From Escherichia phage JEP4: a stretch of DNA of 39,195 bases. The position numbers and the translations under genes are program-made. Below the pieces are notes generated by a model, which was not told the origin of the DNA, ran no database searches, and saw only the letters and a program-made list of their open reading frames with translations. Location of the stretch: sequence record MT740315.1; one strand, written 5' to 3'. This document shows, in pieces, positions 12,002 to 21,385 of the stretch (position 1 is its first letter; each line of letters opens with the position of its first letter).

Positions 12002-13866
12002 TGGCTAAAGCATGGAAAGATGTTATCGCCTCTCCACAGTATCAGGCGTTAACTGAAGAACAGAAAGCACAGGCTCAAGCGCAATATTTTGATGAGGTTG
12101 TTGCCCCTAAGGCTGGTGACAAATGGGCTGAAGCAAGAGATCAGTTTTATGCAGCATACCCTCCACCTCAGCAGCAGAAAGAAGAACCATCATTGATGCA
12201 ACAAGCTGGCGATTGGCTCACTGGTGGTCAAAGTGCAGGGCAAATTGCAGAGCAGGCTGGTCGCGGTCTGGTAAACATACCATTTGACGTATTGCAGGGT
12301 GGCGCAAGTCTGATTAATGCAATCAGTCAGGGGCTTGGTGGGCCAAAAGTATTGGATGATGTTTATCGTCCAGTAGACAGACCGACAGACCCCTACGCGC
12401 AAGCTGGAGAAACAATTGGCGGGTATTTAGTTCCAGGAGTTGGAACGGCAGGAAGCATGGCTATTGGATCACTGGCAGAGGCCGCAAACCAGAAAGGTGA
12501 TTTCGCGCAAAATGCAGCCATAAATGCCGGAGTTAACCTTGCCGCTCAGGGGGTTCTTTCCGCAGCAGCAAAGGGAATAGGGCGTGGAATTACTGCTGTT
12601 CGTGGCGAAATATCACCAGCAGATCAGCAATTGCTCAAGCGTGCCGCTGCGGCAGATGTACCAGTTATGACATCGGATGTAGTTCCTCCAAAAACAAAAC
12701 TTGGCAATCAACTGCAGGGTTACTCAGAAGGAGTCATAGCTGGGACTGGACCAATGAGAGCCGCACAGCAGGATGCTAGAACCAAGCTTGTTAATCGCTT
12801 CACCGAAAAATACGGCGACTACGATCCATCTGTAGTCGTTGATAGTCTAAAGTCAGGCGTTGCAAGGGAAAAATCGTTAGCCAAGTCAAAACTAAACAAC
12901 CTGTCAGGAAGAATGGTTGGAAAGCCAGTTGATACAAGTGGCGCCATAAGAGCTATCGACGGAGCAGTAAACGAACTTGGGAAACTTAAAGGTGTTTCTG
13001 ACACCCAGACCATTTCTGCGCTTAATGATTATAAGAATGCCATTCAGGAGATAACAAATGGAGATGATGCCTTTGAGTTACTTGATAAGCTGAGAACTCA
13101 GTTCCGCATTGACGTAAAAGGCGATCGTACAGTTCTGCCATCAATGTCGCAAACAATGGTCGACAGGGTCTACAACTCGCTAACCAATAGCCTTAGTAAA
13201 TCTATAGCGAAAGGACTTAGCCCAAAAGATGCTTCAGCATGGAGAGCGGGAAAAGCTGATTATGCAAAAATGGCAACACATGCAACTCAAACGCGCCTTA
13301 AAAACGTTCTAAATAAAGGAGATTTAACTCCCGAGGCTGTAAATACCATTGTGTATGGACAATATGGGTCAGATATAGCTCGATTGTACGGGAAACTCGA
13401 TCAAAAAGGTAAAGACATGCTAAGGGCGGCATATATCAGCAAAATAGCTGACAAGGTAGGTGACAGCCCTCAGAAAATGATGACCGAGCTTGGCAAGCTG
13501 CAAAAACAAGCAAATGGTCAGGTGTTTAAAACTGTATTTGGTGGGAAGAACGGAAAAGAGATAGAGGGGATGTTATCTATTCTCGATGCTACCAAAAGAG
13601 CATCTGAGGCTAATGTTGTGACGAAGACTGGCATGACACTCGCGCCTTTGGTAAGGGTTATTGGTAACCTAAAAACCGGAGGCGCGCTATTGGCTGGGGA
13701 AACAGGGATTGGCCTTATGTCGAGGGTTTATGAAAGCCCTATGGCCAGGAATGCGCTCTTACGTCTGGCAAACACCAAAGCAGGAACGCCAGCCTATGAA
13801 AGAGCATTAAGTAACGCTGCAAATGCCATCAGACCGCTGCTTGCCACTGAGGCAACACAGCAGTGA
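12001..13866 (+). CDS. Ejection protein, gp16-like
   Basis: 621 aa; synteny; last gene of the virion block before the accessory island. Confidence 0.6.
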   Translation: MAKAWKDVIASPQYQALTEEQKAQAQAQYFDEVVAPKAGDKWAEARDQFYAAYPPPQQQKEEPSLMQQAGDWLTGGQSAGQIAEQAGRGLVNIPFDVLQGGASLINAISQGLGGPKVLDDVYRPVDRPTDPYAQAGETIGGYLVPGVGTAGSMAIGSLAEAANQKGDFAQNAAINAGVNLAAQGVLSAAAKGIGRGITAVRGEISPADQQLLKRAAAADVPVMTSDVVPPKTKLGNQLQGYSEGVIAGTGPMRAAQQDARTKLVNRFTEKYGDYDPSVVVDSLKSGVAREKSLAKSKLNNLSGRMVGKPVDTSGAIRAIDGAVNELGKLKGVSDTQTISALNDYKNAIQEITNGDDAFELLDKLRTQFRIDVKGDRTVLPSMSQTMVDRVYNSLTNSLSKSIAKGLSPKDASAWRAGKADYAKMATHATQTRLKNVLNKGDLTPEAVNTIVYGQYGSDIARLYGKLDQKGKDMLRAAYISKIADKVGDSPQKMMTELGKLQKQANGQVFKTVFGGKNGKEIEGMLSILDATKRASEANVVTKTGMTLAPLVRVIGNLKTGGALLAGETGIGLMSRVYESPMARNALLRLANTKAGTPAYERALSNAANAIRPLLATEATQQ

Positions 13867-13883
13867 CTAAATGCCATGGATGG

Positions 13884-14072
13884 TTATTTCCTTAGCACAT
13901 GAAACAATGTTTGCTTTAATTCCACCCATACAATTATGACCACTATAGACAGACAAAAGAAACTGAATGCATTGGCATCACGATCGAAACCTTCTCCGGC
14001 ACTAAATCCGTAAAAGGTCATAAAAAATATAAAAATTGCGCACTTTGCAACGTTTACAAATTTTTTCTTCAC
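13884..14072 (-). CDS. Small predicted 2-TM membrane protein (62 aa), GTG start
   Basis: GTG start preceded by AAGGAGGT Shine-Dalgarno at 5-nt spacing; two hydrophobic segments (VAKCAIFIFFMTFYGF and FSFFCLSIVVIIVWV); co-oriented downstream of the CI-like gene. Confidence 0.55.
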   Translation of the reverse strand: MKKKFVNVAKCAIFIFFMTFYGFSAGEGFDRDANAFSFFCLSIVVIIVWVELKQTLFHVLRK

Positions 14073-14132
14073 ACCAACCTCCTTAGTTTTGAGCAGGATA
14101 CCAGATGATAATGTGTCGCCTCCTAAAGGATA

Positions 14133-14774
14133 TCAAAGCAACGGGATTTCAAGGTAAACTGCGGTTGCCAAAATACTAACATCTTCATTTCTAACAAGAA
14201 TATTAGGATACATTGGGTTTAGGGATACTAGGTTTGTCTCTATTTCACCAATGTAAACCTGTTTGAAGCTCAATATTTGCTCTTTATCCAATGATGCTAT
14301 TACATAATCTTTGCTTTTAGCTTTTACTAGAGGGCTGAACGTGACAACCGATCCTCTGGGAAAGCTAATACCTGAACTTGTAGTCATAGCTTCACCTTCA
14401 ATAGTCAATGCAAATGCAGAGTCACCAACATTGTATATTGCAGGATGAAATCTAGACGATGAATGTTCACCTGTGTTTAGGTAATGCATAACTTCATCTA
14501 GTTTGAGAATTGGTATTTGCTTTACCAGAACGTCAGGCATGACGTTTTTTGTTCCCGGACCCTGACCTTCACCTAGAGCTAACCACTCAGCCGTAGTACC
14601 TAATGCGTTGGCTAATGCCTGCAATACCCGAAGCCGTGGTTTAGCCTCACCACCCTCGTATGCAGCTATTTGACGTTGAACAACACCAGCTAATTTTGAC
14701 AACTGCGCCTGCGTCATACCCCTGGACTGTCTTGCCAGAGATACTCTTGATGGGAATTGATCGTCAAAATTCAT
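14133..14774 (-). CDS. CI/LexA-like repressor: HTH_XRE N-domain plus degenerate S24 peptidase-like C-domain
   Basis: N-terminal HTH (GMTQAQLSKLAGVVQRQIAAYEGG); C-domain aligns to the c2 S24 domain in this window but has GEAM where c2 has GDSM, with Lys retained (SFKQ vs TFKK). Confidence 0.8.
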   Translation of the reverse strand: MNFDDQFPSRVSLARQSRGMTQAQLSKLAGVVQRQIAAYEGGEAKPRLRVLQALANALGTTAEWLALGEGQGPGTKNVMPDVLVKQIPILKLDEVMHYLNTGEHSSSRFHPAIYNVGDSAFALTIEGEAMTTSSGISFPRGSVVTFSPLVKAKSKDYVIASLDKEQILSFKQVYIGEIETNLVSLNPMYPNILVRNEDVSILATAVYLEIPLL

Positions 14775-14795
14775 TAGTTCACCATAAAAAATTCA

Positions 14796-14824
14796 TTGAC
14801 TCATACTGAGTGTGAGTGAATAAT
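14796..14824 (+). promoter_or_regulatory. Candidate sigma70 promoter for the Arc-like/antirepressor operon
   Basis: TTGACT, 17-nt spacer, AATAAT, about 50 nt upstream of Arc-like ATG. Confidence 0.35.
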
Positions 14825-14873
14825 CAAACTACAAAAAGTGAGATTATGAGTTTTTCAAAAACAGGAGTGCATA

Positions 14874-15047
14874 ATGACTGAAAAGATATCTTCCATCAAG
14901 CCGCGTCAGGTTCGTTTTACAGAAAAGGTTGATTCACATATCCGCGAATCAGCAAAAAGATGCCATAGGTCAATTCAGGCAGAGATAGCTTATCGAATGG
15001 AGTTATTAATGAAACTTGAGGCAAAGGGCGATGTTGTCATCCAATAA
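14874..15047 (+). CDS. Arc-like ribbon-helix-helix repressor (57 aa; below ORF-track cutoff)
   Basis: Read directly: MTEKISSIKPRQVRFTEKVDSHIRESAKRCHRSIQAEIAYRMELLMKLEAKGDVVIQ; AGGAG SD 6 nt upstream of ATG; beta-strand plus two helices pattern of Arc/Mnt RHH family; first gene of operon. Confidence 0.6.
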   Translation: MTEKISSIKPRQVRFTEKVDSHIRESAKRCHRSIQAEIAYRMELLMKLEAKGDVVIQ

Positions 15048-15120
15048 AAATAGTGAAGCCCGGCAGTGCGCGAACACAAACCGGGCCTCTATGTCAGTAA
15101 CCGTACTCAAGGAAACTAAC

Positions 15121-15759
15121 ATGAATATTGTAGCAAAATCAGATTATAACTTCCAAGGATTCACTTTTAACCCTGTAACAGAGGGCGGGTCTATCTGGTT
15201 TACCTCCACCGAACTAGCTAAGGCTCTCGGCTATAAAAAAACTGATGCCATCAGCCAAATTTATGCCCGTAATGCTGACGAATTTTCCGACTCAATGTCA
15301 TTGACCCTCAATATGAAGGTCAACGGAATAAACAATAGCTTACGTAACAAATCGGTCAGAGTTTACTCACTCCGAGGCGCTCACTTGGTGGCGATGTTTG
15401 CTTCTACGCCCAAGGCCAAAGAGTTCCGCCGCTGGGTGCTGGATATTTTGGATCGGCAGGCAGAATGCTCACCGATTGCAAAACAGTTCACTGACGAAGA
15501 GCTGGTTAATCTCTGCTACTTACAATTGTGGATGGAGAAGAGTCAACAAATGTGCAAACACATCTACCCAGGAATGAAGCAAATTGGTTCTGAGCTTTCA
15601 GGAAGGATTTACGATATTGCATATGAGACTCGCTACATGTCAGAAGAAACCAAGAAATCACTTCTTCGTGAAATGAAGAATCTTGATACCAACAATTTTG
15701 TCGTAAAGAACGCTCAGCCAATGCTGGCAAAACTTCGCGGCGAGGAATGGATTCATTGA
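15121..15759 (+). CDS. Antirepressor-family protein with Bro-N domain
   Basis: Begins MNIVAKSDYNFQGFTFNPVTEGGSIWFTSTELAKALGY (Bro-N-type); AAGGA SD; ORF-track start 15016 is an upstream extension overlapping the Arc-like gene. Confidence 0.75.
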   Translation: MNIVAKSDYNFQGFTFNPVTEGGSIWFTSTELAKALGYKKTDAISQIYARNADEFSDSMSLTLNMKVNGINNSLRNKSVRVYSLRGAHLVAMFASTPKAKEFRRWVLDILDRQAECSPIAKQFTDEELVNLCYLQLWMEKSQQMCKHIYPGMKQIGSELSGRIYDIAYETRYMSEETKKSLLREMKNLDTNNFVVKNAQPMLAKLRGEEWIH

Positions 15760-15846
15760 TTGGTGCGCCGGACTGCGCAAAAGAAAACCGCCAGTGTGCT
15801 GCTGGCGGCCTATGTCACACCCTTACTACCACATAAGGAATGCCTA

Positions 15847-16572
15847 ATGACTTTTAAGAATGTAGCAAACATCGGATCCGTTGTCACGGATAAAACCATT
15901 GACAGCCAAAGTCTTCTGATGATGGTTAATGAAGCTCGCAAGTTATGTGGAGAGCCATCAGTACGTAACAACAAATTCATCGAGAAAATTGAGGATGAAT
16001 TGGAAGGCGAGACCTACACAAAAAGTGTAGGTCGGAAAAACGGGGCTGACATTGATGTTATCTCCATGACTATCAAGCAGGCGCTTCGTGTTGCTGCTCG
16101 CGAATCTAAAGCAGTTCGCCGAACACTTGTAGACAAACTTGAAAGTATGCAGGAAGCGCACATTAAAAGCGGTAAATCAGCGAGTGGACTTGTTGAGTAT
16201 CGTCAAGCGCGAACATTGAAAATGACGGTTGAAGCTGTTACCAATCTGTTCGATCTGATGCCAAATCTTGCGCCGGAGGCAAAGCAGACAGCGGCAGCAA
16301 GTATAATCAACCCGCTCGTTGGTTTTAATGCAATACCTCTTCCGGCAATAGAAGAGCATTACTACTCAGCAGGGGAGGTTGCAGAGCAGCTTGGAGTAAC
16401 GGCCAACAAGATTGGTCGCATTGCTAACGCAAACAACCTCAAAACTGAGCAGTACGGGAAGTTCTTCCTGGATAAATCTGCGCATTCCAGCAAACAGGTG
16501 GAAGCGTTCCGCTACAATGAGGAAGGTGTTAAAGCACTACAACACCTTATTCATGGGAGTAATGTTGCATAA
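15847..16572 (+). CDS. Second antirepressor-like protein (Rha/ANT-like)
   Basis: 241 aa from ATG 15847 with AAGGAA SD; N-terminus resembles the Rha-type N-domain of the 33188 gene; domain call from recalled patterns only. Confidence 0.55.
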   Translation: MTFKNVANIGSVVTDKTIDSQSLLMMVNEARKLCGEPSVRNNKFIEKIEDELEGETYTKSVGRKNGADIDVISMTIKQALRVAARESKAVRRTLVDKLESMQEAHIKSGKSASGLVEYRQARTLKMTVEAVTNLFDLMPNLAPEAKQTAAASIINPLVGFNAIPLPAIEEHYYSAGEVAEQLGVTANKIGRIANANNLKTEQYGKFFLDKSAHSSKQVEAFRYNEEGVKALQHLIHGSNVA

Positions 16573-16793
16573 TGGCAAAGAAAAAATATGGCATTATGCC
16601 GCCAAGAATCAAAGGAAGAGCCAGGGTAAAAGGCGATGCTGGAAGGTATCACATTCTTGGAGTTCTGTGGCATGAGAGAGCTTTAATTTTAAGTAGGCCT
16701 CATGGGTACATTGAAAAGGTATCTATAGATAGAGTAGAGATTCTTCCCCTTACACCTGAAGAAGAAGAAACGTACGGACTTTTTGATAACTAA
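16572..16793 (+). CDS. Hypothetical protein (73 aa), last gene of antirepressor operon
   Basis: TAATG start/stop overlap with upstream gene; followed by terminator. Confidence 0.45.
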   Translation: MAKKKYGIMPPRIKGRARVKGDAGRYHILGVLWHERALILSRPHGYIEKVSIDRVEILPLTPEEEETYGLFDN

Positions 16794-16802
16794 CCAACTA
16801 AA

Positions 16803-16824
16803 CCCGCTTAATCGCGGGTTTTTT
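16803..16824 (+). terminator. Rho-independent terminator closing the antirepressor operon
   Basis: CCCGC-ttaatc-GCGGG followed by TTTTTT; hairpin overlaps the last codons of the convergent mnt homolog. Confidence 0.6.
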
Positions 16825-17065
16825 CTTTTCTAAGGATATCAGCCGCAACTTCTTTTACTCGTTCCGAGATTAATGAGTCCAGCCTCTCTTCTTCATCACG
16901 ATACCCGCTTACAGGTGATGGTTTGGAGAGTGATTCTTCCATCGTAGCCACAATTTCGGAATTGATAGACCTGTTATTCATTTTTGCACGCTGCTTAATC
17001 TTAGCGTGCAACTCGTGCGTAAGCCTCAAGTGGAACTGCGCCTCATCGTATTTGCTGTACATCAT
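16808..17065 (-). CDS. mnt: Mnt-like RHH repressor
   Basis: RHH core FHLRLTHELHAKIKQRAKMNNRSINSEIVATMEESL and tail SKPSPVSGYRDEEERL match recalled P22 Mnt (GRSMNSELLQIVQDALSKPSPVTGYRNDAERL); start at MMYSK with GGTGAGG SD; ORF-track 17146 start is an extension. Confidence 0.8.
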   Translation of the reverse strand: MMYSKYDEAQFHLRLTHELHAKIKQRAKMNNRSINSEIVATMEESLSKPSPVSGYRDEEERLDSLISERVKEVAADILRKEKTRD

Positions 17066-17481
17066 CAATGCCTCACCAAATGGGTGGAATGGCATCGTAA
17101 AACCTACTGTACAAATCAACAATCGTACCGTTTCGGTATGTAACAAATGCTCACCGTAGCCATGCTGCGGCGATTCCTTGTATCTGGAGCAAATTAAATG
17201 ACAGATATTATAAATAGGAATTGTTATTTAATAATGTTTGAAAATAAAAATCATGGACGATAGGAATAAAGGTATTACTTGTTTTTATTTTTGTAAGTGA
17301 CGCATTAAGCGCATAAATAATATGCCTGTTGATCAAGATTCTTGAGTATTGTAAAATAATCGTTTTGTTCATGTTGCATGGTTTTTAAATGAATAGAAGG
17401 TTATTTTTCAAAACAATTGCATCTTTGTCTGCAGTCATTCCGTTTTCTTCAATATCTAAATCTTCAAACAGGATGACTAAT

Positions 17482-19539
17482 ATGCCTGATATAACCCCAA
17501 ATGTTGTAATTGGGATGCCATCGCAACTCTTCACAATGGCTAGCTCTTTTAAAACCGTAGCAAATGGAAAAATTTATATCGGTAAGATTGACACAGATCC
17601 GGTAAATCCAGAAAACCAGATTCCAGTATATCTGGAACGAGAAGATGGTACTTATGTTCAGGTGCCACAGCCAATCGTTATCAATGCTGCTGGATACCCG
17701 GTATACAACGGACAGATTTCCAAATTCGTTACCGTGCAAGGCCATTCTATGGCTGTTTACGATGCATATGGTACGCAGCAGTTCTATTTTCCGAATGTGC
17801 TGAAATACGACCCGGATCAGTTAAGACAAGAGTTAGCAACAGAGGGTAATGAAATACTTGTTGACGACTCCCGTATTGCAGTTAAAAGTGTTCATGTAAA
17901 TTCAAAACTTAGAACACAGCACAATAAAAACGCAGAAATAATCACGCCAAATGATTTTATATCAAATTATGACATGATATCTGCAGCTATTAACTCTGGA
18001 GAGAGTGCCGCAGTATTTAATTCCAGGTATGCATTCACAATAACAGTTGGGGAATATGGTAATTTTAAATCTATTAGTGATGCTCTAAACTCAGCTGTTG
18101 CACTGCGTCCACTATGGAAAAATGGCATTGATTTTTGCATAATTAAAATTCTTTCCGGTTTTGTGCTCAATGAGCAAATAGAAATTTCAGCAGGATGTGA
18201 CTTATCATGGATTAAAATAATATCAGAAGACTCAGTGGTTTTCTCTGATACCAGTTTGTTTACTAAAACTGTTAGGACGTATTACGAATACAAATATTTA
18301 TTTTACATTTGCGATGCAGCAAAAAGTCCTGTATTTGCTATTCAGATTGAAGAAAATAGAGATGATAGCGATGTTTGTGCATTTATTGTAACTCAAAAAG
18401 CTGAACTTAATTTCTATCCGTATTCAGGTGCTCGAAAGTTCTACGTTGGAATTCATGGTAGTTTTGGTGCAAAAATTAGTGCATATCATACCGGATGTGC
18501 TCCTGATGAGGAAAGTGTTGCTGCATATATGCCAGAAGGGTATTACGTATGTGATTTTTCTTATAGCAGATACTCTTCCCTGCAACTGGTAAATAATGTC
18601 AAGGCATCAATGCCTGTAAGCAAGTTTGAACGGTGCACAGAGAGTACGGTTGCGTCAGTTAATTGTATTTATAATGTTAAAGCAGATTTTCAGGGGTCAA
18701 GTGCAAGCTATTGTTATATAGGATGGAATGTAAGAGATGGTTCAAATGTTAATATACGCGACCATAAAACTATACATTGCTCATATCGTGGATTAACCTG
18801 CATTCATACAGCATATGTTGATGCAAGACGACATGACGTTGAAGAAAGTGATGCAGAAACAAGTGGTAAAGTCCTTGAACCAAATATTGAAAAAGGTTTT
18901 TATGGATGTGCACTTGGTGTGCGTATTGATGGTGCGGGTTGTGTTGATGTTGCTGGTAATGATATGCGCAATTGTGGAACAGCCGTTAATGCAGACACTG
19001 GTGCTGTTATTTCAGGAAAAGCTGTAGATATCTCAGGGGCTGAGTTGGGATTTGATTGCCATGCAGGAGCATCTGTTAATTTTCCAAGGCTATGGGGTAC
19101 AGATATAAAAAAATTAATGCACCTCCAAGATGGTGTAAGGTTTAACTCTAATATTTGTCATGTATTTGGTGCAAATCCCACAAAAGATATTAGATGGATT
19201 GATGTAGAGAGATCTGAAGCTTCTTTTATGAATGCAACGCTGGATGCAGATTCAGGATTTATTGCTGACTGTGGTAGTAGGATAACCATTGAAGGAAGTA
19301 AAGTTAAAAACCAAACAATAAGAAGTTTTTTTGGATCACATGTGGCTATAAATAATACTGTTGCTGACAGAACTTATTCAGATATAGCCGATGTTCCGCA
19401 GTTGACTATTAGTGGAGGATCTTTTATTTCTGCTACAGGATATTCTAATTCTGACTCCAGCCCTCTTAGGTTGAGCACAACACGAAATACACTTGGAGTT
19501 GGAGGAGCCATATTTTCAACCAATGGGGAAGTTTCATGA
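17482..19539 (+). CDS. Tailspike protein: P22-family head-binding N-domain plus divergent receptor-binding domain
   Basis: N-terminus MPDITPNVVIGMPSQLFTMASSFKTVANGKIYIGKIDTDPVNPENQIPVY matches the P22 gp9 head-binding domain pattern; remainder is AT-rich and unrelated to my recollection of P22 gp9; ORF-track start 17389 is an extension. Confidence 0.85.
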   Translation: MPDITPNVVIGMPSQLFTMASSFKTVANGKIYIGKIDTDPVNPENQIPVYLEREDGTYVQVPQPIVINAAGYPVYNGQISKFVTVQGHSMAVYDAYGTQQFYFPNVLKYDPDQLRQELATEGNEILVDDSRIAVKSVHVNSKLRTQHNKNAEIITPNDFISNYDMISAAINSGESAAVFNSRYAFTITVGEYGNFKSISDALNSAVALRPLWKNGIDFCIIKILSGFVLNEQIEISAGCDLSWIKIISEDSVVFSDTSLFTKTVRTYYEYKYLFYICDAAKSPVFAIQIEENRDDSDVCAFIVTQKAELNFYPYSGARKFYVGIHGSFGAKISAYHTGCAPDEESVAAYMPEGYYVCDFSYSRYSSLQLVNNVKASMPVSKFERCTESTVASVNCIYNVKADFQGSSASYCYIGWNVRDGSNVNIRDHKTIHCSYRGLTCIHTAYVDARRHDVEESDAETSGKVLEPNIEKGFYGCALGVRIDGAGCVDVAGNDMRNCGTAVNADTGAVISGKAVDISGAELGFDCHAGASVNFPRLWGTDIKKLMHLQDGVRFNSNICHVFGANPTKDIRWIDVERSEASFMNATLDADSGFIADCGSRITIEGSKVKNQTIRSFFGSHVAINNTVADRTYSDIADVPQLTISGGSFISATGYSNSDSSPLRLSTTRNTLGVGGAIFSTNGEVS

Positions 19540-19835
19540 TTAAGAGCATTGATGTCACTCCATTTCTTCACTCGCTTTGCGCTTTTGCGGCTCAGGTACT
19601 GGTTGGTATTTTTACCGGAAACTGGGCTTACGGTGCGATAGCCGGTTGTACGTTCTTCATTGCGCGTGAACACACCCAGGCAGAATATCGCTGGATAGAA
19701 AAGTTTGGGAAAGGGAAACGTGTCAACATGCCGTGGTGGGGAGGTTTTGATCCACGCGTGTGGGATGTGGGAAGTTTGTTGGATTTTTCTTTCCCAATTA
19801 TCGGATGCTTATTGGTATGGATTCTTGCATCGTAG
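19536..19835 (+). CDS. Small membrane protein (99 aa) translationally coupled to tailspike; candidate lysogenic-conversion/superinfection-exclusion moron
   Basis: ATGA overlap with tailspike stop; hydrophobic segments AFAAQVLVGIFTGNWAYGAIAGCTFFIA and FSFPIIGCLLVWILAS; followed by terminator. Confidence 0.6.
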   Translation: MIKSIDVTPFLHSLCAFAAQVLVGIFTGNWAYGAIAGCTFFIAREHTQAEYRWIEKFGKGKRVNMPWWGGFDPRVWDVGSLLDFSFPIIGCLLVWILAS

Positions 19836-19923
19836 CGAACACATAATTACCTATGAGACAAAACTGAGACACACAAAGCTTTGCACTGGATTGCAAGGCT
19901 TTGTGCTCTTCGATAGTGGTTAA

Positions 19924-19943
19924 GGTGGATCACTCCACCTTTT
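19924..19943 (+). terminator. Rho-independent terminator after tailspike-moron unit
   Basis: GGTGGA-tcac-TCCACC followed by TTTT. Confidence 0.55.
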
Positions 19944-20034
19944 CATCAATCCAGTCCGCCCACCATTGCATCATTTCTCTGCGTTTATCGAGATACTGCG
20001 CGTGGTTGTAAATTCAGCAAACGACGTAATGTGT

Positions 20035-20079
20035 TTGACAAAAAATTAGCGCAAGAAGACAAAAAATCACCTTGCGCTA
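20035..20079 (-). terminator. tI/sib-like terminator hairpin downstream of int transcript
   Basis: Perfect 10-bp inverted repeat TTAGCGCAAG...CTTGCGCTAA followed on the minus strand by TTTTTTG; position beyond the attP P arm as in lambda. Confidence 0.6.
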
Positions 20080-20330
20080 ATGCCCTGTCTCAGGTCACTA
20101 ATACTATCTAAGTAGTTGATTTATAGTGACTGGATATGTTGTGTTTTGTCGCATTATGCAGTCTATTTTTTAGACTAAAGATAATGTAATGCATTGATAT
20201 TAATGGTTTTTAATGTTTCACGTTCAGCTTTTTTATACTAAGTAGGCATTATAAAAAAGCATTGCTTATCAATTTGTTGCAACGAACAGGTCACTATCAG
20301 TCAAAATAAAATCATTATTTGATTTCAATT
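20080..20330. other. attP: attP (lambda-type), core GCTTTTTTATACTAA at 20227-20241
   Basis: Lambda common core 15-mer present; P-arm arm-type site CAGGTCACTAATAC and P-prime arm CAGGTCACTATCAGTCAAAATAAAATCATTATTTG adjacent to int. Confidence 0.8.
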
Positions 20331-21385
20331 TTGTCCCACTCCCTGCCTCTGTCATCACGATACTGTGATGCCATGGTGTCCGACTTATGCCCGAGAAGAT
20401 GTTGAGCAAACTTATCGCTTATCTGCTTCTCATAGAGTCTTGCAGACAAACTGCGCAACTCGTGAAAGGTAGGCGGATCCCCTTCGAAGGAAAGACCTGA
20501 TGCTTTTCGTGCGCGCATAAAATACCTTGATACTGTGCCGGATGAAAGCGGTTCACGACGAGTAGATGCAATTATGGTTTCTCCGCCAAGAATCTCTTTG
20601 CATTTATCAAGTGTTTCCTTCATTGATATTCCGAGAGCATCAACATGCAATGTTGTAGGGATGGCAATTTTTACGCCTGTTTTGCTTTGCTCGACGTAAA
20701 GATATCCATCTACGATATCAGACCACTTCATTTCGCATAAATCACCAACTCGCTGCCCGGTAACAACAGCCAGTTCCATTGCAAGTCTTAACCAACATGG
20801 TGATGATTCTGCTGCTTGATAAATTTTCAGGTATTCGTCAGCCGTAAGTCTTGATCTCCTTACCTCTGATTTTGCTGCGCGAGTGGCAGCGACAGGGTTT
20901 GTTGTTATATGGCCTTCAGCTATTGCCTCTCGGAATGCATCGCTCAGTGTTGATCTGATTAACTTGGCTGACGCAGCCTTGCCCTCGTCTATGTATCCAT
21001 TGAGCATTGCCGCAATTTCTTTTGTGGTGATGTCTTCAAGTGGAGCATCAGGCAGACCCCTCCTTATTGCTTTAATTTTGCTCATGTAATTTATGAGTGT
21101 CTTCTGCTTGATTCCTCTGCTGGCGAGGATTTTTTCGTAGCGATCAAGCCATGAATGTAACGTAACAGAATTATCACTGTTGATTCTCGCTGTCAGAGGC
21201 TTGTGTTTGTGTCCTGAAAATAACTCAATGTTGGCCTGTATAGCTTCAGTGATTGCTATCCTCCTGTCTCGGCCTAATCCAAACTCTTTACCCGTCCTTG
21301 GGTCCCTGTAGCAGTAATATCCATTGTTTCTTATATAAAGGTTAGGGGGTAAATCCCGGCGCTCATGACTTCGCCTTCTTCCCAT
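20315..21385 (-). CDS. int: Integrase (tyrosine recombinase), lambda Int-type
   Basis: 356 aa beginning MGRRRSHERRDLPPNLYIRNNGYYCYRDPRTGKEFGLG, matching lambda Int essentially throughout as recalled. Confidence 0.95.
   Translation of the reverse strand: MGRRRSHERRDLPPNLYIRNNGYYCYRDPRTGKEFGLGRDRRIAITEAIQANIELFSGHKHKPLTARINSDNSVTLHSWLDRYEKILASRGIKQKTLINYMSKIKAIRRGLPDAPLEDITTKEIAAMLNGYIDEGKAASAKLIRSTLSDAFREAIAEGHITTNPVAATRAAKSEVRRSRLTADEYLKIYQAAESSPCWLRLAMELAVVTGQRVGDLCEMKWSDIVDGYLYVEQSKTGVKIAIPTTLHVDALGISMKETLDKCKEILGGETIIASTRREPLSSGTVSRYFMRARKASGLSFEGDPPTFHELRSLSARLYEKQISDKFAQHLLGHKSDTMASQYRDDRGREWDKIEIK

Follow-up and report, generated by a model that had tools for sequence, protein, structure and literature searches.

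What is the tailspike of Escherichia phage JEP4 made of, where does its receptor-binding part come from, and what could it recognize? The window analyzed here is the whole stretch of sequence record MT740315.1 (39,195 nucleotides), a P22-like Lederbergvirus of E. coli whose morphogenesis genes are 94–96% identical to those of phiv205-1, E212, CUS-3, Sf101, and others. Mosaic mapping, and not base composition alone, supports that the tailspike gene is a chimera with a horizontally acquired receptor-binding part. The best explanation overall, and one that we consider quite likely, is a modular P22-type tailspike with a standard head-binding domain and a swapped-in beta-helix receptor domain.

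Domain architecture of the tailspike

The gene and its parts are the following:

17482..19539, plus strand: tailspike gene, 685 amino acids (aa) plus stop, an intact frame in the list of open reading frames (ORFs), at the position of P22 gene 9
17482..17820, plus strand: head-binding (tail-hub docking) domain, residues 1–113 (Pfam PF09008; PDB chains of Sf6 gp14 and P22 gp9)
17821..17961, plus strand: neck or linker, residues 114–160 (the Sf6 gp14 alignment reaches residue 160)
17962..19536, plus strand: receptor-binding domain, residues 161–685, a predicted right-handed parallel beta-helix of a rare family

Pfam Head_binding (PF09008) covered residues 1–113 over its full length (model positions 1–113 of 113, E 1.5e-61), and this part aligned to the Sf6 gp14 and P22 gp9 PDB chains with E 1e-63 to 1e-42. 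This agrees with an earlier reading of the DNA letters (the sequence-only reading), which recognized a P22 gp9-like head-binding domain in roughly the first 120 residues and found the remainder unlike P22 gp9. Indeed, in phmmer and profile searches the similarity to P22 gp9 was confined to residues 1–116, so that the receptor domain showed no sequence similarity to the endorhamnosidase receptor domain of P22 gp9. In P22-like podoviruses, a head-binding domain of this standard type attaches the spike to the tail hub.

The neck contains a conserved motif, LRTQHNKNAEIITPNDF (nt 17911–17958), which is common to the Sf6 and CBA120 tailspikes and is also present in members of the receptor-domain family that carry other anchors. 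A 25-sequence profile of this family matched Sf6 and CBA120 TSP3 in the neck segment only. The AlphaFold2 model of the neck had a low predicted local distance difference test score (pLDDT, 53–56).

From residue ~160 onward, no solved chain among the PDB sequences, that of P22 gp9 included, was matched by the single sequence or by the 25-sequence profile, and no Pfam family matched. The sequence-only reading had considered that host specificity and enzymatic activity could not be identified from the sequence, and our searches led to the same point: no catalytic family was retrieved by Pfam (with the protein and all 25 family members) or by phmmer and profile searches of the PDB sequences, but only anchor and neck domains and, in four members, the generic Beta_helix. 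Pfam gave no match in the tailspike for an SGNH/GDSL hydrolase domain, as in the SGNH esterase of G7C gp63.1, or for PF12708 and PF13884, which would point to a Pectate-lyase-3 or an endosialidase-type protein with a C-terminal S74 chaperone. A Peptidase_S74 match belongs to a lambdoid tail fiber gene, not to the tailspike.

Structure prediction, a check that the sequence-only reading had suggested, returned a beta-helix. The AlphaFold2 model, a monomer built with 25 homologues, had a mean pLDDT of 88 (>90 over nearly all of residues 180–685), with short strands and regular rungs. Thus, the modeled fold of the receptor-binding domain is a right-handed parallel beta-helix, as expected for a tailspike and shared with the P22 type.

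A recent crossover within the head-binding domain

The most recent exchange could be located by comparing the window with two prophages:

17774..17801, plus strand: most recent crossover interval, 28 nt (codons 98–107), E100341-like on the 5' side and FORC_082/HZ41-like on the 3' side

The E100341 prophage is the closest relative of the backbone (99.8% identity over 5.4 kb), and in its 862-aa tailspike (locus L020, 5094–7679) the same head-binding domain is followed by unrelated sequence. The window was 99.8% identical to it from 12389 to 17836, with zero mismatches up to 17801 and the first one at 17802. Against the FORC_082 prophage, positions 17774–20050 of the window were 100% identical; all 55 mismatches were located before 17774, the last one at 17773. 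Since both identity ranges meet at 17774–17801, we placed the crossover there, in the conserved end of the head-binding domain. The homology to E212 ended at 17820 and came back at 19853, and the DNA homology of other P22-like tailspikes ended at 17820 as well. With these breakpoints, and with 98–99% identical copies found behind other anchors, the horizontal acquisition of the receptor-binding module that the sequence-only reading had proposed is well founded.

Homologous recombination of interchangeable modules would then have built a functional P22-type tailspike. The receptor domain entered this backbone through the crossover, and all of the sequence from there to at least position 20050, with the small membrane-protein gene that follows the tailspike, is identical to the FORC_082 prophage. 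The end of the head-binding domain and this small 3' ORF could act as the homology arms for such exchanges.

Base composition of the receptor domain

The GC content of residues 1–120 was 0.42, with a GC at third codon positions (GC3) of 0.38 (up to 0.40 for the head-binding part), and that of residues 121–685 was 0.37, with a GC3 of 0.214. The other 29 long ORFs of the window had a GC3 of 0.486 ± 0.063, so that the receptor-binding part lies at z = -4.3, and only 1.6% of equal-length windows were equally AT-rich. The composition is therefore not uniform across the gene, in line with the sequence-only reading. The GC drop that it had placed at about 17900 is real; its onset was slightly earlier, around codons 110–125 (nt ~17810–17860).

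Low GC could say nothing about foreign origin and be only a general property of tailspike receptor domains. In E212 and E100341, whose tailspikes have unrelated receptor domains, the same part of the gene has a GC3 of 0.28–0.30; AT-rich receptor domains are usual at the tailspike locus. However, a GC3 of 0.21 is below that of both domains and equals that of phi92-like genes. Moreover, the mosaic breakpoints and the 98–99% identical copies in two other phage genera show a foreign origin without any use of composition. As the sole explanation, a general AT-richness is already contradicted by the breakpoint mapping, and we regard it as highly improbable.

A rare domain shared by three phage genera

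The receptor domain belongs to a small family. When 1.84 billion representative proteins were searched exhaustively with phmmer, 189 matched at E <=1e-3 and only 15 at E <=1e-30, and a word-indexed search of 5.8 billion sequences retrieved 25 clusters. Seven of 50,697 phage records matched, and they correspond to five phages: HZ41 (100% aa identity), 92CQ (99.6%), HEMP4 (91%), VEc3 (48%), and Aeromonas phage ZPAH34 (30%, partial). The domain was present in 16 of 5,426 complete E. coli genomes. At least four kinds of anchors (PF09008, PF18668, PF12571, and PF03906) were found among the family members, and two distant members presented an extra C-terminal SGNH esterase domain (PF13472/PF00657). 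Thus, the description of the domain as unrecognized stands in the sense that no characterized relative was found by sequence, and it has to be amended for the near-identical, uncharacterized copies in HZ41, 92CQ, and HEMP4. No characterized tailspike resembled the C-terminal domain in sequence; near-identity to one was what the sequence-only reading had named as evidence against itself.

The close copies are located in phages of different kinds. 92CQ is a phi92-like Justusliebigvirus (a myovirus), and its DNA was 99.3% identical from nt 17910, at the conserved neck motif. HEMP4 and the 118UI-type prophages are phiV10/phiv142-3-like Uetakeviruses; their DNA was 97.9% identical from nt 18167, with homology at the protein level over the whole domain. 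As judged from these alignments, the domain moves among Lederbergvirus, Uetakevirus, and a phi92-like myovirus at 98–99% DNA identity. In 92CQ, the domain lies within a multivalent phi92-type adsorption apparatus, in the slot after the gp142 homologue (locus L001, 5786–7630), which we take to be the endosialidase position in phi92. The neighboring genes in 92CQ had a GC3 of 0.22–0.27, the same as the receptor domain, and a low-GC virulent phi92-like phage is a plausible source.

A more distant relative was found by structure. The fold similarity to Andhra gp15, from a Staphylococcus epidermidis picovirus (PDB 8egr), was clearly above the generic beta-helix background. The family profile aligned to gp15 with an hhalign probability of 90.7% (E 1.3e-6, 322 columns), and the motifs TVGxxGxF, ITSE(D/N), and CDFSY are common to both; phmmer and hmmsearch of the PDB sequences did not report gp15. 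The receptor-domain family thus appears to be a distant relative of Andhra gp15.

Conserved residues and possible activity

In the family alignment, the invariant and near-invariant polar residues concentrated in residues 185–540. The conserved set comprises D240, E291, D297, R318/K319, H336, D358, R418/D419, R426/H428, H442, R449, D494/R496, and D516, and two stretches stand out:

18550–18564, plus strand: conserved motif C357-D358-F359-S360-Y361, in which D358, F359, and S360 are invariant or nearly so in the family
18733–18828, plus strand: block of conserved polar residues R418/D419...R426/H428...H442...R449

The spacing of about 23–24 residues between conserved polar positions suggests that they stack on successive rungs of the helix, where they would probably form a substrate groove. 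By analogy with other beta-helix tailspikes, the domain would trimerize and could bind an E. coli surface polysaccharide along a groove formed by D240, E291, D297, D358, R418/D419, R426, H442, and R449. The polysaccharide would probably be cleaved or modified, so that the virion reaches the outer membrane.

A non-enzymatic adhesin, in which the beta-helix binds the receptor without cleaving or modifying it, is an alternative that we consider unlikely. P22-like virions (P22, Sf6, and HK620) generally need a receptor-destroying activity to get to the membrane. In addition, the strongly conserved D358, R418/D419, R426, H442, and R449, on what would be successive rungs, look more like the lining of an active site than like parts of a purely structural core, and the CDFSY motif is kept even in Andhra gp15.

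Lysogen O types and the receptor

We typed the carriers by the names that PGAP gave to wzx and wzy in their O-antigen clusters:

FORC_082, Lederbergvirus prophage: O5 cluster
PCP07083, Lederbergvirus prophage: O7 cluster
MS 198-1, Lederbergvirus prophage: O11 cluster
EC332, Lederbergvirus prophage: unnamed rfbBDAC + glf cluster
118UI, ECO_1_S, ECO_2_R, EECO1006, and MSB1_7C, Uetakevirus prophages: O15 cluster

The receptor domains of the four Lederbergvirus-type carriers were >=99.6% identical to that of the window, and the copies of the O15 carriers were ~98% identical. The carriers presented at least five different O-antigen clusters. An assignment of the receptor from the lysogen serotype was attempted and abandoned, as the clusters of the five typed carriers, found by chromosome walking, all differed. 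The literature on HZ41, HEMP4, 92CQ, VEc3, and strains 118UI and FORC_082 gave nothing usable on host serotype or receptor. The main text of PMC10408124 does not include this receptor-domain subtype among those assigned to a serogroup, nor does that text mention HZ41 or HEMP4. The same anchor also occurs in prophages of several O7 strains: E100341, AST205, and H1827/12 were retrieved with the anchor as well as with O7 wzy.

Because the lysogens span several serogroups, the classical reading of the protein as an O-antigen endoglycosidase is uncertain. It would be specific for one serogroup, as in P22, Sf6, and HK620, and the diversity of O types would be due to later switching or unreliable typing. 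The P22-like genome, the gene 9 position, and a beta-helix fold like that of known endoglycosidase tailspikes all fit it, and O15 accounts for five of the nine Uetakevirus-type carriers. For Lederbergvirus, a correspondence of prophage tailspike and host O antigen is reported to be the rule (PMC10408124). Against this, the four Lederbergvirus-type lysogens carry their domains at >=99.6% identity with four different O clusters (O5, O7, O11, and rfbBDAC + glf), and such identity points to a spread so recent that four independent O-antigen switches would hardly have had time to occur. The five O15 carriers could belong to a single clone, and the domain was present in only 1 of 35 O5, at least 1 of 97 O7, and at least 5 of 100 O15 genomes. 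We therefore see a single-serogroup endoglycosidase as possible, with the chances rather against it.

The substrate may then not be confined to one O serogroup. The receptor could be independent of serogroup or an element common to several O antigens, or the lysogen heuristic may fail here. Regarding the O-antigen clusters themselves, insertion sequence (IS) elements were located at the galF (promoter-proximal) end in three of the five typed carriers:

FORC_082: IS1 at the galF end (locus L007, 2763–3460)
118UI: two ISAs1 copies at the galF end (locus L012, 8956–11189)
MS 198-1: IS4 inside galF (locus L019, 45658–47004)

IS elements at this end could affect O-antigen expression.

A serogroup-independent surface glycan, or a sub-structure common to several O antigens, can be put forward tentatively, with enterobacterial common antigen, colanic acid, and the lipopolysaccharide core as candidates. 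The five distinct O-antigen clusters among the carriers are consistent with it, and so are the IS elements at the galF end if they reduce O-antigen expression, as well as the location of the 92CQ copy in a multivalent adsorption apparatus. Non-O-antigen receptors have also been proposed for other cross-serogroup receptor proteins of E. coli phages (PMC10408124). However, no particular glycan is directly evidenced, and the rarity of the domain in complete genomes is unexpected for a module that would open all E. coli to infection. We think that it may well turn out otherwise.

A broader proposal joins several of these lines: a small family, distantly homologous to Andhra gp15, that would recognize a serogroup-independent or shared glycan and shuttle near-identically between temperate podoviruses and a virulent phi92-like myovirus. 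Taken as a whole, we find it doubtful. If true, the domain would have a new specificity, as a depolymerase or as an adhesin, and would be a portable module that widens host range.

The explanation that we favor, a modular P22-type tailspike with a swapped-in beta-helix receptor domain, has several points to face. The sequence reveals no enzymatic activity, and no CAZy-type Pfam family was matched. The closest structure, Andhra gp15, comes without a demonstrated activity, and PMC9710869 only notes a resemblance to alginate lyases. The spread of the lysogens over O5, O7, O11, O15, and rfbBDAC + glf clusters departs from the rule of one domain for one O antigen, which has been reported for P22-like prophages of Salmonella (quoted in PMC10408124). 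Finally, the direction of transfer from a phi92-like donor derives from composition only.

Gene start and genomic setting

17470..17473, plus strand: Shine-Dalgarno sequence AGGA, 8 nt 5' of the ATG at 17482, as read from the sequence

We set the start of the tailspike at ATG 17482 rather than at the in-frame ATGs at 17389 or 17473, because the spacing of AGGA and the start in NCBI agree. The identical 685-aa protein is present in NCBI as 'bifunctional tail protein' or 'phage head-binding domain-containing protein', and the whole protein matched PHROG 5662 ('tail fiber protein'). A 716-aa ORF from ATG 17389 was considered and rejected: the Shine-Dalgarno sequence serves 17482, homologues start there, and the NCBI protein has 685 aa. 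The in-frame extension at 17389–17481 (plus strand), beginning MNRRLFFKTIASLSAVIPFSS, resembles a twin-arginine signal peptide; it lies in the AT-rich leader, lacks its own ribosome-binding site, and in all likelihood is not translated.

The tailspike is preceded on its 5' side by an immI-like region, which encodes an Arc-like regulator and an antirepressor (Pfam matches Arc, Bro-N, and P22_AR_C); the FORC_082 and E100341 prophages are arranged likewise. In the same region, between the DNA-transfer genes and the antirepressor, we observed a 213-aa CI/LexA-like repressor (HTH_3 + Peptidase_S24; 14133–14774, minus strand) with a GC3 of only 0.32. Its position seems to be a variable slot, since the FORC_082 prophage has a Panacea-domain gene pair there.

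Downstream of the tailspike, the following features were found:

19536..19835, plus strand: predicted membrane protein of 99 aa, phrog_1443 (PHROG E 9e-54), its start overlapping the tailspike stop (ATGA)
20227–20241: lambda-type attP core GCTTTTTTATACTAA, exact, adjoining the lambda-type integrase
20315–21385, minus strand: lambda-type integrase with an Arm-DNA-binding domain

The sequence-only reading had extended the low GC through the downstream gene, which it called a moron. This was not the case: ORF 19536–19835 had a GC of 0.47 and a GC3 of 0.47, and the next AT-rich patch 3' of the tailspike (20000–20300) is the lambda-type attP. The ORF had no Pfam or PADLOC match. It is located directly 3' of the same receptor domain in HZ41, FORC_082, HEMP4, and 118UI, and also 3' of the unrelated E100341 tailspike (87.6% nt identity) and of lambdoid side-tail-fiber genes. 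Its family includes >424 protein clusters; in Lederbergvirus and Uetakevirus prophages, the members directly follow the last gene for a receptor-binding protein. It is, then, a widely conserved 3' flank of the receptor cassette and not a domain-specific partner. Its interpretation as an AT-rich moron or an O-antigen modification gene was rejected, because it is not AT-rich and is not tied to this receptor domain.

The window represents an un-integrated or circular form, since the intact attP core adjoins the integrase. The near-identical FORC_082 prophage is integrated at the gal–bio attB, beside ybhB and bioA.

Significance and comparison with known systems

Receptor domains of tailspikes decide which bacteria can be infected, and phages, tailocins, or diagnostic reporters are re-targeted by exchanging them. 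To this field, the present locus adds a very recent swap with its crossover placed within 28 nt, a rare domain common to temperate and virulent phages of three genera, and a case in which the usual shortcut from prophage tailspike to host O antigen does not work. The general view of tailspikes as modular proteins is unchanged, and the practical value hinges on identifying the receptor experimentally. The chimera noticed by the sequence-only reading is correct but ordinary in kind, as modular exchange across genera is already well documented (PMC10408124). The relative in a Gram-positive picovirus and the carriers from multiple serogroups are mildly interesting.

Among the known systems, P22 gp9, Sf6 gp14, and HK620 have the same head-binding domain (83% identity to Sf6 gp14 in this part), the same gene position after immI, and the same plan of anchor, neck, and right-handed beta-helix. 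Its anchor and genomic position place the gene among the P22-type tailspikes; no characterized tailspike sequence family includes its receptor domain.

Andhra gp15 is described as a beta-helix of 19 layers, with alginate lyases and the phi29 gp12 appendage as relatives and no activity demonstrated (PMC9710869), and its structural identity to the tailspike domain is only 16%. Its anchor is a loop and coiled-coil that binds the picovirus portal and collar (PMC9710869), whereas the tailspike has a P22-type head-binding domain instead. The hosts differ as well: that of Andhra is Gram-positive, with wall teichoic acid as the receptor, and the host of the tailspike has a different envelope.

The tail fiber of 92CQ (XVC02409) and the tail proteins of HEMP4 and the 118UI-type prophages share the same receptor domain, and all are uncharacterized. 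Unlike the P22-type anchor found here, the 92CQ anchor fits a phi92-type myovirus baseplate, and those of HEMP4 and 118UI fit an epsilon15/phiV10-type podovirus.

Finally, the receptor-binding proteins described by Pas et al. 2023 (PMC10408124) follow the same principle, a conserved anchor with an exchangeable domain that moved across genera, and conserved flanking sequences were proposed there as recombination hotspots. The conserved flanking motifs of that study were reported for lytic genera and were not found there in Lederbergvirus or Uetakevirus, whereas here both of these genera share the receptor domain with the lytic Justusliebigvirus at 98–99% identity.

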